A DNA stretch of 64,000 bases from Okeania sp. SIO1H4 (lineage in GTDB: Bacteria > Cyanobacteriota > Cyanobacteriia > Cyanobacteriales > Microcoleaceae). The stretch's first letter is position 1; every line of letters begins with the position of its first letter. Below the pieces are notes generated by a model. That model worked only from the letters and a program-made list of their open reading frames with translations. It had not been told where the DNA came from and searched no databases. The position numbers were made by a program, and so were the translations under genes. Where the stretch lies: the NCBI RefSeq assembly GCF_010672695.1, contig NZ_JAAHGB010000033.1, positions 7,965 through 71,964 on the forward strand, in the 5' to 3' direction. Of this stretch, positions 1 to 46,183 are shown piece after piece.

Positions 1-464
1 GTAACTTATCTACTCAACCTTATTATCGTTCTGATATAGGAGCTTTTAAAGTTAAAATTTTGACCAATAGTCTCTATCGTGCTTTAGGAGTAAAAATTGA
101 TGGTCAATCTCAAAAATTAACTGAAGAAAATGCAGGTAAACTATTAGCAAAAAGTGAATTAGTGATTGATACTTTTGATAATAGTATTAGTCGGAGTGCT
201 GTGAAAAATTATTGTGCTGATGCTAATATTTTTTGTGTTCATGTAGGGTTAGCTTCTGAATATTCAGAGATAATTTGGAATGAAAATTATCGAGTCCCTT
301 CTCCAGTAAATGATGATATTTGTGATTATCCATTAGCGAGAAATTTAGTAATGTTAACTGTTGCTGTTGCTTGTGAAGTTGTAGTGAATTTTGCAGCGAC
401 AAAACAGCAGGATAATTTTACTGTGACTTTAGGAGATTTTGCTGTTAGGTCTATAGATTTTTAG
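1..464 (+). CDS. E1-like ThiF/MoeB-fold adenylyltransferase domain protein, C-terminal part only (5' end lies outside window; frame open to position 1)
   Basis: Reading frame is open from nt 3 to the stop at 462-464. The translation ...SDIGAFKVKIL...LVIDTFDNSISRSAVKNYCADANIFCVHVGLASEYSEI...CDYPLARNLVMLTVAVACE matches the ThiF/MoeB E1 fold. This includes the inter-domain region of the nucleotide-binding fold and the conserved Cys-containing crossover loop. Confidence 0.5.
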   Translation, partial: NLSTQPYYRSDIGAFKVKILTNSLYRALGVKIDGQSQKLTEENAGKLLAKSELVIDTFDNSISRSAVKNYCADANIFCVHVGLASEYSEIIWNENYRVPSPVNDDICDYPLARNLVMLTVAVACEVVVNFAATKQQDNFTVTLGDFAVRSIDF

Positions 465-517
465 AATTATAAAATTTGCTAACATTTTAATAATTAGGAA
501 TTTACCTAACTTTATAT

Positions 518-2161
518 ATGAATAAAATAGAAATGTTGAATAAAAAGTTAATATTCCCACCTAGAAAAGGAAAAAGTGAAAATGAGGCTTTAGAATGCTC
601 TGAAGCAGTTGTAATTATAGGAGCTAATGGTTCTGGTAAGAGTAGACTTGGTCGTTGGATAGAAGAACACCAAGAAAGTTCTCAAGTGGTTCACAGAATT
701 TCCGCCCAAAGAAATTTAGATTTTTCTGAGTATGTGTCTCTTACAAGTATAGAAAAAGCCAACAATGAGCTATTATTTGGTATAGGTACAATACCTCAAA
801 GCTGGGGAGAATTACAGACAAAGAAAATACAAAGATGGAAAGCTAATCAGAGACCGGAGTTAAGTGTTACACCTATGCTTGATGATTATGATCAAGTGCT
901 TTCTCTTCTTTTTGCAAAAGAAAATAATCGAAATAGTGAATATGTCCATCAAGTAAGAGAAATGCAGAGCGAAGGAAATGATAAATCTCCGAAAATTTAT
1001 GACTCTCCTATTGATGTAATACAGCGTATTTGGAAAGATATTCTACCTCATAGAAAACTTGTGATTGAAAATGATAAGGTTACTGCTGCTATTTCAAATA
1101 GTGATACTTATCATGGTCGAGAAATGAGTGATGGAGAAAGAGTCGCTTTATATTTAATGGCTCAATGTTTATGCGTACCAAATGACTCTATTTTAATTAT
1201 AGATGAACCAGAAATTCATCTTCATAAGTCATTAATGAATAAGCTTTGGTCAGAAATTGAAGCAGCAAAACCTACTTGTCTATTTATTTATATTACCCAC
1301 GATCTTGACTTTGCGGCCTCTAGAATAGGAGCTAAAAAAATATTAGTTAAAAGCTATGACGGTCAACAATGGGATTGGGATGAAGTACCAGAAAGTGAAA
1401 ATTTACCAGAACCAGTGCTTCTTGAAATTTTAGGAAGTAGAAAAAAAATTGTTTTTGTTGAGGGTGATAAAGGCAGCTTAGATTATAAGATTTATTCGGC
1501 AATATATCCAAATTATTTAATAGTGCCTCGTGGAGGTTGTGATAAGGTGATTGAGTCAACAAAAGCAATGCGAGATAATTCAGCATTTCATCACATTAAG
1601 GCTTTTGGTGTTATTGATATGGACTATAGAACTGAATATCAAATAAAAGCTCTCAAAGAATCTGGTATAAAACCTTTGAATGTTGCTGAAATTGAGAATA
1701 TTTTATGTGTACCTGAACTACTAGAAATTGTTGCAAATAATCTAGGATTCAACTATGAGGAAATTTATCAGAAAGTTTTAGATTTTGTCATAGATATAAT
1801 TTCAAAAAACTTAGAAGATCAATGTTCAAAGCGTTCATCTGCTGAGATAGAATTCAAATTAAAGATGTTTAATGCAAAGGCTAAGGGAAAAGACGAATTA
1901 TCTGTAGCCTTAAAGGATCTTTGTGATTCCATTAATATCAGCGAAATTTATGATAAAAACTTGAAAATATATAATCAAATAATTCAAGAAAAAGATTATA
2001 AAAAAGCATTATTGTATTACAATAACAAAGGATTATCAAAACTAATTTCAAAGTTTTTTGATGTGCGTGATTATAGTAATCATATTATTAGGCTTTTATC
2101 TACTGAAAATAGGGAAAAAATTATCTCAGTTTTAAAAGAATATGCTCCAATACTAGATTAG
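518..2161 (+). CDS. Fused ABC-type ATPase + Toprim/DUF4435-like nuclease (OLD-family / PARIS AriAB-like / Gabija GajA-like)
   Basis: Walker A GANGSGKS, Q-loop SAQRN, ABC signature-like MSDGER, Walker B ILIIDEPEIHLH and H-loop YITHD are all present. The C-terminal half carries the Toprim hallmarks VFVEGD ... GVIDMDY (a conserved E, then DxD). The start sits 53 nt downstream of the E1-like ORF on the same strand. Confidence 0.6.
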   Translation: MNKIEMLNKKLIFPPRKGKSENEALECSEAVVIIGANGSGKSRLGRWIEEHQESSQVVHRISAQRNLDFSEYVSLTSIEKANNELLFGIGTIPQSWGELQTKKIQRWKANQRPELSVTPMLDDYDQVLSLLFAKENNRNSEYVHQVREMQSEGNDKSPKIYDSPIDVIQRIWKDILPHRKLVIENDKVTAAISNSDTYHGREMSDGERVALYLMAQCLCVPNDSILIIDEPEIHLHKSLMNKLWSEIEAAKPTCLFIYITHDLDFAASRIGAKKILVKSYDGQQWDWDEVPESENLPEPVLLEILGSRKKIVFVEGDKGSLDYKIYSAIYPNYLIVPRGGCDKVIESTKAMRDNSAFHHIKAFGVIDMDYRTEYQIKALKESGIKPLNVAEIENILCVPELLEIVANNLGFNYEEIYQKVLDFVIDIISKNLEDQCSKRSSAEIEFKLKMFNAKAKGKDELSVALKDLCDSINISEIYDKNLKIYNQIIQEKDYKKALLYYNNKGLSKLISKFFDVRDYSNHIIRLLSTENREKIISVLKEYAPILD

Positions 2162-2331
2162 ACATCAAACAGAAGTAAATAATTAGATATCTCCAAAATA
2201 AACTCAAAAAAGATATCGTAGTAATTCAGTCCTGTCATCGTAAAATCTAATGTAGAAAAGCAATCCCAAAAACTATTGGAGATTACTTTCCTATGGCAGT
2301 GATTTTATACTAAGTTATCAGTCAAATTTGA

Positions 2332-2433
2332 TATATAGCAGTCGAAGGAAAAGTTAGAACAGATAAAAAGCTTAAAACTCAAACAAAGCAATATTCTTCC
2401 TTCTTCCCTCTTCCTTCTTCCTTCTTGCTTCAA
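2332..2433. repeat. Copy 1 of a ~100-nt dispersed element (TATAGCAGTCGAAGGAAAGG...AAAACTCAGACAAAGCAATATT + CTTCCTT heptamers) lying just 3' of the minus-strand rubrerythrin stop
   Basis: Near-identical sequence at 46093-46183, 47581-47685 and 61143-61262. Each copy lies immediately downstream of a minus-strand gene. Confidence 0.7.
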
Positions 2434-2445
2434 CAAAAAAAACAC

Positions 2446-3159
2446 TTAAGCAGCAACCGCTTCTTCATAAGGAACAAAAGATTTCTTCTGCGCTCCACAA
2501 ATAGGGCAAGACCAATCTTCAGGAATATCTTCAAATGCTGTACCAGGAGCAATACCAGAGTCAGGGTCGCCAACAACTGGATCGTAAATCATCGAACATA
2601 CCCGACAGATCCATTTACGGGTTGCAGTTTCCTTTCCAGCAGCTTTTTGTTTCGGTGCAACCCCATTCAAACCTTCGAGAGCTTCCGTATATTGATCCGC
2701 GTGGTGATGCTCAATGCTAGTCAATAAACCAAATTTATGAGTTGCTTGACGGAACATGGAAGCGTGTTCGCGAGACTCTTCCTCTTGCTCCTTAAATTCT
2801 GCTGCTGCGGCACTATCGCGGTCTACCCGTGCTTGCTCGGCAAATTCTGGGTACATAGTTGTATATTCGTAGGTCTCTCCTTCAATTGCTAACTCTAAAC
2901 AACGAGAAGCGATCGCTTTTTTCTGCTCTTCAGTCAAAGTAGATGGGTCGTCTACTACTAACTCTGGGTGAAGTAGGCGAAAGTGAGAAAAGGCGTGTTG
3001 AGTTTCTTGGTTAGCTGTTTCCCGGAAAAGTTTGGCTAAATCTGCCATGCCCAATTTCTTGGTTACTTCGGCAAAGAAAAGGTATTTACGGTTAGCCATT
3101 GATTCTCCTCCAAAAGCATCAGACAAGTTTTTGGCGGTGTTAGAGTTGGACAAGTCCAT
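2446..3159 (-). CDS. rbr: Rubrerythrin (ferritin-like diiron domain + C-terminal rubredoxin-like CxxC...CxxC domain)
   Basis: C-terminal [10 protein letters not shown]...CPICGAQK rubredoxin motif and N-terminal diiron helices ([19 protein letters not shown], ExxH-type ligands). 237 aa. Confidence 0.85.
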
Positions 3160-3197
3160 GATGTTCTCCTGAATTCTTTCTTTTACTCTGTTATATC

Positions 3198-3212
3198 TAA
3201 GAATAATTCTTA
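3198..3212. promoter_or_regulatory. Perfect 7-1-7 inverted repeat TAAGAATAATTCTTA in the divergent rbr / fur-family intergenic region; candidate Fur/PerR-type operator
   Basis: Read directly from the sequence. It is an AT-rich palindrome like the PerR/Fur box class and sits between divergently transcribed rubrerythrin and Fur-family genes. Confidence 0.4.
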
Positions 3213-3318
3213 TTTAATAAAATGTCAAGGAAAAGATTAATTTTAAATTAACAACCAATATTTGTTGAGATGTGTTATAATCTGAAGTTGGTATAAAATC
3301 TATTAATAAGCCTAAATA

Positions 3319-3753
3319 ATGAACAGTAACTATACTGCAACAAATATTAAGAAAGAAATGCAATCTAAAGGACTGAGAATCACTCCTCAGCGGTTTGCAG
3401 TTTACGCTAATCTTTTATCTCGTTCAGACCATCCGACAGTAGAGGAGATACTGAGTGAAGTCAACCGTGAGTTACCAATTTCTTCCAAGGCAACTATTTA
3501 TAGCGCCTTAACAGTGTTACGAGAAGTAGGGTTAGTTAAGGAAGTATTGTTGGAAGAGGGAGTAACTCGTTATGACGCTAACGTTAAACCTCATCATCAT
3601 TTTTGCTGTCAAAAGTGTGGCGCGATCATTGATATCGACTGGGAAACTTTTAGTAATTTGCAAATGGATCGTTTACCACCAGGAATTTATCCTGAAAGTT
3701 ATGAGGTTATTCTTAGGGGTACGTGCAGTCGTGAAAGTTGTAATAAAGCATAG
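3319..3753 (+). CDS. Fur-family metalloregulator (PerR/FurC-like)
   Basis: N-terminal winged-helix region (RITPQRFAVYANLL...HPTVEEIL), an HHHF metal site and CxxC...CxxC structural Zn site. Divergent from rubrerythrin, as in peroxide regulons. Confidence 0.8.
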   Translation: MNSNYTATNIKKEMQSKGLRITPQRFAVYANLLSRSDHPTVEEILSEVNRELPISSKATIYSALTVLREVGLVKEVLLEEGVTRYDANVKPHHHFCCQKCGAIIDIDWETFSNLQMDRLPPGIYPESYEVILRGTCSRESCNKA

Positions 3754-4075
3754 GCATTGAAGAAGGAAGAAGGAAGAAGAAAGAAGGAAGAAGGAAGAAA
3801 GAGGAGATACTAAAAAGTTGACAACCCTCGAATGATACCCAACCAATTCTAGATACCGTGGGTGAGGTTGGGGTATTAAACCCATCAGGGAAAAGATAAA
3901 TTTGATAGTGCGAGCATCTTGCTCGCGAATATTTTAGTATCGCTAAAAAAGAAGGAAGAAGAAAGAAGGAAGAAGGAAGAAGGAAGAAAGAATAAGAGAA
4001 AAGTGGATGGGGATACTAAAAAGTTGCCACGACTCTCGATCACTCCCCAACCAATTGTTCCTTCTGCCTTCGTTT
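3754..4075. repeat. Composite repeat: (GAAGGAA)-type heptamer arrays (3754-3800, 3951-3993) flanking duplicated GATACTAAAAAGTTG...CCAACCAATT units and a GGGGTATTAAACCCATCAGGGAAAAGATAAATTT core
   Basis: The same core is at 12016-12048, 27617-27650 and 42100-42135. Heptamer arrays appear in inverted orientation (GGCAGAA...TTCTGCC), giving a foldback architecture. Confidence 0.7.
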
Positions 4076-4510: not shown

Positions 4511-4675
4511 AAAAGGCGATTAATAATTAATAATTCATAATTAATAATTGCCTCTTATTTTCAAGTAGAAATAATTATTGATGGTTTACTTCCCCTCCTG
4601 GGAGTTGCTATGGGAACATTGCATGCAACGTCCCTACTGCCACTCAAGAAGGAGTTTGAGTACCCATCCATTTTT

Positions 4676-4790
4676 TCCTTGCTTCCTTCTTCCTTGCTTC
4701 CTTCTTCTTTGCTTCCTTCTTCCTTCTTCCTTCTTCCTTCTGACTTCTTCCTTCTGACTTCTTTCTTCTTCCTTCAAATAAATGCTAGGA
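4676..4790. repeat. Heptanucleotide tandem repeat array (TTCCTTC / TTGCTTC variants)
   Basis: Visible direct tandem heptamers between the VOC gene and the TPR gene. Confidence 0.8.
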
Positions 4791-20960: not shown

Positions 20961-21661
20961 GAAAAGCGGGCGGGTATTGCGCTTTCCTTGGATTTTTTTT
21001 AAGAAGTTTGTTCTATGGCCATTTGATATAATTAATTTGGCCTACAGAAATTCTAAATTATAAATTTGATATTTCTGAGATTTTAGATCTGGTCAAAAAA
21101 CCAAATTATCTTTTATCTTTTGAATCTATTTGTAAGAATTTGTGGACAATAAAAGAAGTTTTACTATTTTTTGAGAATTTAGATTAGATTTTGACTAAGA
21201 TTCAAGTGCTTTAGTACAGAATCCAGATTGGATTGGCCTAAAGTACAGCTTTTTCGTTTCTTATCTATTCAGATAATTATGATGGCCTTTACACTACTCA
21301 ATACTATGTTAAGAATGTTAACATTTATTACGTCTTATGGCTATACCTATAAGGATGATTTTTCAGATGAATGAGTTTAATTACCTAAATTAGTTAAATT
21401 ATCTATAAGAGGGTACTCATAAATTCTTAAAAAAATTGCATCCTGCACAACAAAATCACAAAAATTTTGCAAAAATACTTAAACAAGGTCAAAAAAAGAG
21501 TATATGAAGTATATTTACTTGACTTTTGACTTTCAATTTTAAACTTTTGACTATCTTGAGTATGTCTTTAATTCTGTTTGCATAACATTTCGCAGCGAAA
21601 TGTTTGCTCAGAATTACTTAGTCATTTTTGGCTTCCGCGAAGCGGTTGAGTTACTTAATAT

Positions 21662-46092: not shown

Positions 46093-46183
46093 GTTATAGC
46101 AGTCGAAGGAAAGGTTAGGACAGATAAAAAATTTAAAACTCAGACAAAGCAATATTTTTCTTTATTCCCTCTTCCTTCTACTA
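46093..46183. repeat. Copy 2 of the 3'-end-associated element (see 2332-2433), just downstream of the minus-strand thioesterase stop
   Basis: TTATAGCAGTCGAAGGAAAGGTTAGGACAGATAAAAAATTTAAAACTCAGACAAAGCAATATTTTTC + CCTCTTCCTTC. Confidence 0.7.

Follow-up and report, generated by a model that had tools for sequence, protein, structure and literature searches.

Genes and features of the locus

The window (the whole stretch of 64,000 nucleotides from Okeania sp. SIO1H4 that was analyzed) opens with a partial gene on the forward strand (positions 3–464), which codes for the C-terminal end (153 residues) of an E1-like protein with a ThiF fold and about 212 amino acids, hereafter ThiF-212. This partial sequence matches Pfam ThiF above the cut-off (32.3 vs. 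28.1 bits; E = 7.3e-8). The ThiF stop codon (ending at position 464) is separated by 53 nt from the ATG at position 518 of ariAB, a gene on the same strand (positions 518–2161) that encodes 547 amino acids and is recognized as AriAB by PADLOC and as AAA_21 plus DUF4435 by Pfam. The next gene in the ORF list, on the reverse strand (positions 2446–3159), encodes a rubrerythrin-rubredoxin, and no gene for a UvrD-like GajB follows the nuclease gene. In these outlines the locus is as the sequence-only reading had described it: a C-terminal E1-like fragment, a protein that joins a complete ABC ATPase head to a Toprim domain, and then rubrerythrin, not gajB.

The N-terminal, AriA-like ABC-ATPase half of AriAB (residues 1 to about 291; positions 518–1390, forward strand) contains Walker A (GANGSGKS; residues 35–42, nt 620–643), the Q-loop (Q64), the ABC signature (MSDGER; residues 203–208, nt 1124–1141), Walker B (ILIIDEPE; residues 225–232, nt 1190–1213), and the H-loop (ITHD; residues 259–262, with the His at nt 1298–1300). 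The key residues of all these motifs show no variation among 20 homologs, which come from several phyla and extend down to 44% identity. The C-terminal, AriB-like DUF4435/Toprim half (residues 308–532; positions 1439–2113, forward strand) carries the Toprim Glu (E315 in VFVEGD; nt 1460–1462) and the DxD motif (D367/D369 in IDMDY; nt 1616–1624). These three acidic residues and E393 are likewise invariant in the 20 homologs, such that the conservation of the catalytic residues is established directly.

The profile matches cover nearly the entire protein. Pfam AAA_21 (41.5 bits, cut-off 27) matches residues 32–262, and the predicted Toprim nature of the C-terminal half is borne out by DUF4435 (47.2 bits, cut-off 27; E = 3.2e-12; profile positions 2–234 of 238). 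The PADLOC AriAB model PDLC02982 (502 bits, E = 4.1e-151) aligns residues 5–544 with profile positions 22–565 of 570, the AriA model matches the N-terminal half (1.2e-14), and the AriB model PDLC02983 matches residues 308–510 in the C-terminal half (7.1e-12). The AF2 model of AriAB has a mean pLDDT of 88; its ATPase half is structurally similar to the defense ABC ATPases PtuA, GajA, and AriA, and its Toprim half shows strand-helix alternation in the core (E310-314 to E384-386). Sequence and profile searches of the PDB with AriAB gave weak matches to AriA in the ATPase lobe only; for the solved AriA of E. coli (E = 1e-4), the match is confined to the C-terminal ATPase lobe. A PDB search with a profile of the AriAB C-terminal domain had no match to the solved AriB, and the evidence for a Toprim domain accordingly comes from the Pfam and PADLOC HMMs and the invariant acidic residues. 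An exact-sequence look-up of the AriAB protein of the window returned no match. As for the translation start, the ariAB gene of Okeania SIO1I7 (90% identical) has ATT where the window has the ATG at 518, and most of the 20 aligned homologs start near the second ATG at 533. Thus, the latter (giving 542 aa) may be the true start.

These results uphold the earlier assignment to PARIS with fused AriA and AriB, a form of the system that is already known: single-gene ariAB fusions composed of AAA_21 and DUF4435 were documented by Rousset (2022; PMC9122126), and merged ariAB constitutes two PARIS clades with a single origin from clade 9 (Burman, 2024; PMC11464382). PADLOC and DefenseFinder both recognize such proteins, and the latter classes merged PARIS as a "loner" (PMC9122126). 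Membership of this family is observed directly, in that an AAA_21-type ABC ATPase and a DUF4435 domain with the Toprim core (Glu and DxD) are present in one chain with a full-length profile match, and in that the gene stands alone, with neighbors that vary across independent contexts and no obligatory partner. Compared with the known merged PARIS proteins, Okeania AriAB has the same N-terminal ABC ATPase and C-terminal DUF4435/Toprim on one polypeptide, keeps the same Walker A/B, signature, H-loop, and Toprim E/DxD residues, and is likewise encoded by a lone gene, which is often found on mobile DNA. It is a cyanobacterial member with nothing structurally distinct. In the two-gene PARIS of E. 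coli B185 (PDB 8UX9 and 8V45), by contrast, AriA and AriB are separate proteins; the ATPase half comprises about 290 aa in Okeania AriAB but 464 aa in E. coli B185 AriA, and its helical insertion is much smaller. Given this short ATPase half and reduced insertion, AriAB may not form a hexameric propeller scaffold.

Exchange of PARIS and Dazbog cassettes

Comparison with Okeania SIO2C2 (locus L002) by blastn delimits a variable cassette of 1.9 kb that contains ariAB (positions 449–2323) and is absent in that strain. Positions 1–448 and 2324–3968 of the window match L002 at 97% and 94% identity, respectively, with no match between them, which establishes the cassette boundaries directly. The left break lies 14–16 nt ahead of the ThiF stop codon. 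At the right junction (positions 2324–2449), where homology to L002 resumes at 2324, the conserved flank opens with a dispersed repeat that holds an array of the heptamer TTCTTCC (2394–2431, by TRF). Further copies of this repeat are present at 21190–21308 and 7276–7184 of the SIO1I7 locus (L001), at 4045–3972 of L002, and at 46128 and 47619 of the window. The rubrerythrin-rubredoxin gene forms the right flank of the slot and lies outside the system; syntenic rubrerythrin genes with PF02915 and PF00301 are present in L002, L095, L096, and L097. In SIO2C2, the ThiF-212 gene is 95% identical and is followed by a 2.7-kb segment that occupies the slot and encodes DzbA of the Dazbog system (PDLC03835, 6.5e-59). 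PARIS and Dazbog cassettes have thus been exchanged precisely in the slot between ThiF and rubrerythrin in Okeania.

A transposon-like insertion was considered for the cassette and rejected, since neither direct nor inverted repeats were found to flank it; a better fit is recombination by way of the conserved flanks. A role of the slot as a general defense hotspot across cyanobacteria was also rejected. Among 96 proteins encoded within about 3 kb downstream of ThiF-212, few have PADLOC matches (E <= 1e-5), namely MADS-like, PD-T4-10, and kinase-like PD-T4-6, and the downstream proteins checked with Pfam belong to ordinary families (PG_binding_1, DUF924, GNAT, and pentapeptide). The hotspot claim is therefore confined to Okeania.

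The ThiF-like neighbor and its conserved partner

The full-length ThiF-212 ortholog of Okeania SIO1I7 (L001, 9316–9948) has 210 aa, with ThiF as its sole domain (3.8e-25). The family comprises 3213 homolog clusters, and the 120 listed homologs are at least 69% identical and come from filamentous cyanobacteria. In the family alignment, columns are on average 80% identical, and a GxGxxG motif, conserved Arg and Asp residues, and one invariant Cys (C164) are present. Judged by this conservation, ThiF-212 belongs to the core genes of filamentous cyanobacteria, is retained with or without AriAB, and stands outside the defense gene.

The fallback of the sequence-only reading, two unrelated adjacent genes such as a MoeB/ThiF paralog beside a stand-alone PARIS-like gene, holds for the unrelated neighbors and the stand-alone gene but fails for the paralog. 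An ordinary biosynthetic ThiF/MoeB was rejected because ThiF-212 scores below the NCBIfam equivalog cut-offs for PRK08644 ThiF (94.3 vs. 159), TIGR02354 (85.7 vs. 152.2), and MoeB PRK05690 (55 vs. 266); the score against the cap2_3 model NF058523 is also low (49 bits, cut-off 320). No genes for ThiS, ThiG, or MoaD were found in the annotated ThiF-212 neighborhoods, and the E2, Ubl, or JAB genes that an E1-based defense system might have led one to expect were not found nearby either, including in SIO1I7, where the neighbors are a 294-aa gene without a Pfam match and a 23S_rRNA_IVP gene. Although ThiF-212 shares the E1 Rossmann adenylation fold with CBASS Cap2, Bil, 6A-MBL, and ThiF/MoeB, it differs from the E1-based defense systems in its size of only about 212 aa, the lack of an E2 fusion, and the absence of both partner genes and linkage to an effector. 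In Planktothricoides, genes for DndBCD are located directly upstream of ThiF-212.

Of the 57 metagenome loci in which the sequence reaches 1.3 kb or more upstream of ThiF-212, 42 have on the same strand, directly upstream, a gene for a protein of about 275 aa (p279). The conserved partner of ThiF-212 is thus the uncharacterized p279 rather than AriAB. For this protein, Pfam, NCBIfam, and the PDB yielded no sequence match, and its AF2 model is poor (pLDDT 55). A literature search on the ThiF-212 family returned HesA only and nothing on the p279/ThiF-212 pair.

Alternative explanations and proposed mechanism

The sequence-only reading had raised the possibility of an undescribed defense system in which an E1-like enzyme is paired with an ATPase-Toprim nuclease. 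In such a two-gene module, by analogy with CBASS Cap2 or Bil, AriAB or a target could for instance be adenylated or conjugated by the ThiF-like E1. In favor of such a module, both genes lie on one strand with a gap of 53 nt and no terminator-like site between them; the promoter/terminator scan was uninformative in this AT-rich DNA. Given this lack of a terminator-like site, ThiF-212 and ariAB may be co-transcribed. The order ThiF-AriAB-rubrerythrin is kept in three Okeania MAGs. These MAGs, however, are the only ones in which this order was found and are close relatives (AriAB 86–90% identical), so shared descent explains the pair. A scan of the genome collection yielded only one locus. The conservation expected of a functional pair was not found: among the 50 loci that extend at least 1.8 kb beyond ThiF-212 on the downstream side, none has AriAB there, and ThiF is beside AriAB in none of the four independent AriAB contexts (three cyanobacterial and one from Vibrio, the last with TIR and AbiH genes on its two sides). 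Moreover, ThiF-212 keeps its identity of at least 69% among the listed homologs whatever its neighbors, the ThiF gene of SIO2C2 is followed by the DzbA cassette instead, and nearby genes for E2, Ubl, or JAB are lacking. Generic PADLOC E1-E2 models do match ThiF-212 (best 7.5e-14), but only in its Rossmann part (residues about 11–114 of 210). The absence of ThiF linkage is an observation, and the missing co-occurrence largely refutes the two-gene module, which we regard as extremely improbable. AriAB itself behaves as a mobile single gene: it has 2429 homologs across phyla and is present on 61 plasmids, whose hosts include Bacillus, Campylobacter, Escherichia, and Rhizobium.

Two other explanations concern AriAB alone, and both appear very unlikely. 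It could be a DNA nuclease of the OLD family (class 1) or of the Gabija GajA type that responds to another trigger, such as RecBCD inhibition or nucleotide depletion. OLD and GajA proteins likewise combine an ABC ATPase with a Toprim nuclease in a single chain and have an anti-phage role, which AriAB would share; Foldseek aligns the AriAB model with the GajA chains 8u7i_A and 8x5i_D across some 650 columns, and lesser matches were obtained to PADLOC GajA (3.3e-7) and ATPase-Toprim_I-B (1.2e-6) and to OLD 6p74 (0.0037). Nevertheless, the GajA match amounts to 27 bits, compared with 502 bits for the AriAB profile, and is located in the ATPase part, with GajA/OLD HMM scores about 20-fold lower in bits than the AriAB score. 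The Toprim of AriAB lies within DUF4435/AriB, unlike the Toprim_OLD of OLD and GajA, which is absent among the Pfam matches at E <= 1, and ariAB is followed by a rubrerythrin gene on the other strand, not by gajB. Alternatively, AriAB could be a decaying or non-defense remnant of the ABC-ATPase family without a current immune role, given that the visible flank consists of housekeeping genes (rubrerythrin, Fur, and glyoxalase) and holds no defense island. The ariAB ORF is intact in the window and in the Okeania orthologs at 86–90% identity, however, all catalytic residues are kept and invariant across phyla, and the other occupant of the slot is also a defense gene. Taken together, these findings favor the interpretation (probability about 0.85) that positions 518–2161 are a stand-alone, single-gene merged PARIS in a variable slot, to which the ThiF-like neighbor is unrelated.

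By analogy with the characterized two-gene PARIS of E. coli (PMC11464382), we infer the defense activity, trigger, tRNA target, and oligomeric state of this merged protein. AriAB probably senses a phage protein via its ATPase and activates a Toprim tRNA nuclease. The ATPase half would oligomerize and keep the Toprim half inactive until a phage-encoded trigger (e.g., an Ocr-like anti-restriction protein) is bound in an ATP-dependent manner, upon which the Toprim domains would be freed or re-oriented. These domains would then dimerize and cut the anticodon stem-loops of host tRNAs, and the resulting stop of translation would abort the infection. Since the two halves are covalently joined, activation would have to be conformational and could not proceed through release of AriB as a free dimer.

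For the ThiF-like gene, two broader explanations may be compared. It is conceivable, albeit tentatively, that the 3' end of ThiF-212 serves as the recombination anchor of an Okeania defense-cassette hotspot and that p279 and ThiF-212 form an uncharacterized E1-like pathway of filamentous cyanobacteria. This is more probable than ThiF-212 being a shared accessory that is co-transcribed with the adjoining defense cassette and adenylates or modifies one of its components. A shared accessory would be consistent with the occurrence in Okeania of PARIS or Dazbog on the downstream side of ThiF and with DndBCD directly upstream of it in Planktothricoides, yet such a role seems hardly credible.

The suggested E1 partnership thus dissolves upon genome comparison, and the locus offers little new for defense biology. 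The merged AriAB, which lacks the "release of free AriB" step of the E. coli system, poses a concrete mechanistic question. Furthermore, filamentous cyanobacteria share a strongly conserved but unnamed pair of genes, which encode p279 and a minimal E1-like enzyme. Finally, the clean exchange of PARIS for Dazbog at one chromosomal slot in Okeania provides an anchor for mining the defense cargo of cyanobacteria.

The AriAB gene and its family

The merged PARIS gene, designated AriAB, corresponds to a 547-aa entry in the ORF list of the window (518–2161, + strand). The sequence-only reading had described a protein with a full ABC ATPase motif set and a Toprim E...DxD signature, and every motif that it named is present. 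Residues 32–262 match Pfam AAA_21 and residues 309–532 match Pfam DUF4435, both above the gathering score. In an alignment of 20 homologues from several phyla (identity down to 44%), G35, N37, G38, G40, and K41 of Walker A, Q64 of the Q-loop, M203 to R208 of the signature, D229 to E232 of Walker B, H261 of the H-loop together with D262, and the Toprim residues E315, D367, D369, and E393 are all invariant. The true start may be ATG 533, giving a protein of 542 aa, because ATT stands at the position of ATG 518 in the closest orthologue (Okeania SIO1I7, annotated from the second ATG with 542 aa) and most homologues in the alignment start at the position of ATG 533. The annotated product of the SIO2D1 orthologue is longer (587 aa).

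The PADLOC AriAB profile (PDLC02982) matches residues 5–544 with E = 4.1e-151, and the separate AriA and AriB profiles match the N-terminal and C-terminal halves, respectively, which bears out the earlier assignment to a fused PARIS type. PARIS is found as two genes or as AAA_15/AAA_21 + DUF4435 single-gene fusions (Rousset et al., 2022; PMC9122126). Among the 11 PARIS clades, two consist of merged ariAB genes, which have a single origin from clade 9 (Burman et al., 2024; PMC11464382). The merged form is already in the literature, and the gene itself is not new. In sequence, AriAB resembles the solved AriA of E. coli marginally (E = 1e-4), and similarity to the solved AriB was undetectable when a profile of the C-terminal domain was compared with PDB; PARIS membership therefore rests on family HMMs and catalytic residues, and not on proximity to the E. 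coli system. The alignment-based AF2 model is confident (pLDDT 88), and in its C-terminal half strands and helices alternate in a core bearing E315 and D367/D369, as a Toprim fold would show.

An OLD- or Gabija-type nuclease is a very improbable alternative identity. The scores of GajA, PtuA, and other ABC ATPase defence models in PADLOC are 20-fold lower in bits than that of the AriAB profile, the C-terminal half is DUF4435 rather than Toprim_OLD, and GajB is absent. There is equally little to favor a non-functional remnant, given that the ORF is intact and the catalytic residues are invariant. The window gene is thus best read as a merged PARIS system of the known single-gene kind, adjoining an unrelated core gene.

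In E. coli PARIS, the AriA hexamer sequesters AriB, which upon release dimerizes and cuts the tRNA-Lys anticodon stem-loop, such that translation stops (PMC11464382). By homology, AriAB probably acts in a PARIS-like manner, and conservation of its Walker A/B and Toprim residues speaks for retention of both activities. With the two halves fused, activation would have to be a conformational or oligomeric change, with no release of a free effector. Moreover, E. coli AriA is much longer than the ATPase half of AriAB, so the scaffold geometry may differ. It is from this analogy that we infer a defence activity for AriAB, along with its trigger and target.

The ThiF-like gene and its conserved neighbor

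The E1-like partial gene that had been noted upstream is confirmed: an open frame running off the window edge (3–464, + strand) matches Pfam ThiF, and 53 nt separate its end from the AriAB ORF. Upstream extension, as had been proposed, was possible through a contig of Okeania sp. SIO1I7 (L001) that is 90% identical and syntenic to the window. This contig provided the full-length gene, ThiF-212 (L001 9316–9948), which encodes 210 aa with a ThiF domain only. ThiF-212 has 3213 homologue clusters, the best 120 of which have at least 69% identity and span Oscillatoriales and Nostocales; mean column identity in the alignment is 80%. These patterns mark it as a core gene. Its scores are well under the NCBIfam cut-offs for ThiF, MoeB, cap2_3, and PRTRC-ThiF, so it is neither a recognized defence E1 nor the ordinary biosynthetic MoeB/ThiF that had been offered as a fallback.

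The conserved neighbor of ThiF-212 is p279, an uncharacterized gene of about 275 codons located directly upstream on the same strand (p279/ThiF-212 at L001 7631–8515/9316–9948 and L003 4983–5822/6001–6642). The Okeania and Phormidium p279 are 64% identical. Eighty metagenome loci were collected with the ThiF-212 alignment. Of these, 57 extend at least 1.3 kb upstream of ThiF-212; p279 lies within 600 nt upstream in 42 of the 57 (in the range L016–L093), and anywhere upstream in 48. It has 1832 homologues; among the matches listed, all are unnamed or "hypothetical" except for one DUF4376 label, and no match was found in Pfam, NCBIfam, or PDB. The protein has an invariant GICLSG motif with C259, whereas its C-terminus is variable and lacks a Gly-Gly ending; its AF2 model (pLDDT 55) is too poor for use. 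No Ubl, E2, or JAB genes were seen near the pair in the annotated loci.

In Okeania, a 23S_rRNA_IVP four-helix-bundle gene on the opposite strand (L001 8576–8929; SIO2C2 contig L002 5122–5475) parts the otherwise tightly linked p279 and ThiF-212. The SIO2C2 p279 matches as two separate pieces, which may reflect a frameshift or a truncation. Upstream of the SIO1I7 locus, at a distance of a few kb, lies a PatG-like subtilisin gene (Peptidase_S8 + PatG_D + PatG_C; L001 3656–5809, - strand) for a cyanobactin-maturation-type protease; at the matching place in SIO2C2, a 115-aa Peptidase_S8 fragment alone was called.

Cassette exchange beside ThiF-212

SIO2C2 shares the flanks of the window: its ThiF is 95% identical, and the opposite flank comprises rubrerythrin, Fur, glyoxalase, and TPR genes. 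The interval from ThiF to rubrerythrin, however, holds two genes in SIO2C2, both different from AriAB (L002 6618–9362, the counterpart of window 449–2323). PADLOC identifies the first as DzbA of the Dazbog system (6.5e-59), and the second (358 aa) has a sub-threshold HEPN hint. At the DNA level, window 1–448 and 2324–3968 are homologous to SIO2C2, with nothing matching between. The left break is 14–16 nt ahead of the ThiF stop codon; the right one is next to a dispersed repeat of about 90–120 bp, within which AAAGCTTAAAACTCAAACAAAGC precedes an array of TTCTTCC heptamers. Neither a target-site duplication nor a terminal inverted repeat was found flanking the cassette. AriAB and DzbA are thus cassettes exchanged in a variable slot, for which recombination through the conserved flanks is the simplest route.

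The dispersed repeat, a possible recombination substrate, occurs at window 2331–2449, ~46128, and ~47619, L001 21190–21308 and 7276–7184, and L002 4045–3972. Intergenic heptanucleotide arrays (TTCTTCC/GAAGAAG; window 2394–2431, 3759–3799, 3949–3996, and 4675–4775) give spurious SSFFLL- or EEGRRK-rich ORFs, and lengthen the 3' end of the SIO1I7 p279 ORF to 294 aa.

This swap contradicts a functional module of ThiF-212 and AriAB, the new pairing put forward in the sequence-only reading, and so do the co-occurrence data. Of the metagenome loci, 50 extend at least 1.8 kb downstream of ThiF-212, and no AriAB homologue occurs there in any of them, nor in the Phormidium ETS-05 and Planktothricoides loci. 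Conversely, three cyanobacterial AriAB homologues (58–65% identity) and one from Vibrio (45%) reside in contexts unrelated to one another, and ThiF is missing from all four. The homologue in the Vibrio harveyi group (region 3835–7690 in L012–L014) has a TIR gene on one side and AbiH on the other, and AriAB relatives are present on 61 plasmids across many phyla. The ThiF-AriAB-rubrerythrin order was seen nowhere but in the window and in three Okeania MAGs that are close relatives, a restriction that common descent explains. Such a module is accordingly the least credible of the alternatives considered. Around the Vibrio TIR/AriAB/AbiH genes, regularly spaced 30-aa ORF calls hint at a possible chromosomal integron cassette array.

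A general defence hotspot at ThiF-212 was also considered. In Planktothricoides, DndB, PAPS-reductase-like DndC, and SMC-like DndD (L004–L006 1–5914) lie directly upstream on the same strand with an 86-nt gap; one variant has an additional HNH/ScoMcrA-like gene. A further defence system thus adjoins ThiF-212 in this genus. Among 96 proteins within about 3 kb downstream of ThiF-212 in metagenome loci L017–L094, a few match PADLOC mad2, mad3, mad6, and mad8 (MADS-like), PD-T4-10 A/B, kinase-like PD-T4-6, and MkoA. An initial set of ten had no PADLOC defence-system match. Nine downstream proteins compared with Pfam are ordinary (PG_binding_1, DUF924, GNAT, and pentapeptide), one being without a match. 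The general hotspot was rejected, and given the few matches, the hotspot claim extends no further than the slot between ThiF and rubrerythrin in Okeania.

The analysis has two by-products of value. One is p279/ThiF-212, a strongly conserved, uncharacterized gene pair of filamentous cyanobacteria whose second member is a minimal E1-like protein of 212 aa. The other is the exchange of PARIS for Dazbog, in which one defence cassette cleanly replaces another between sister genomes.
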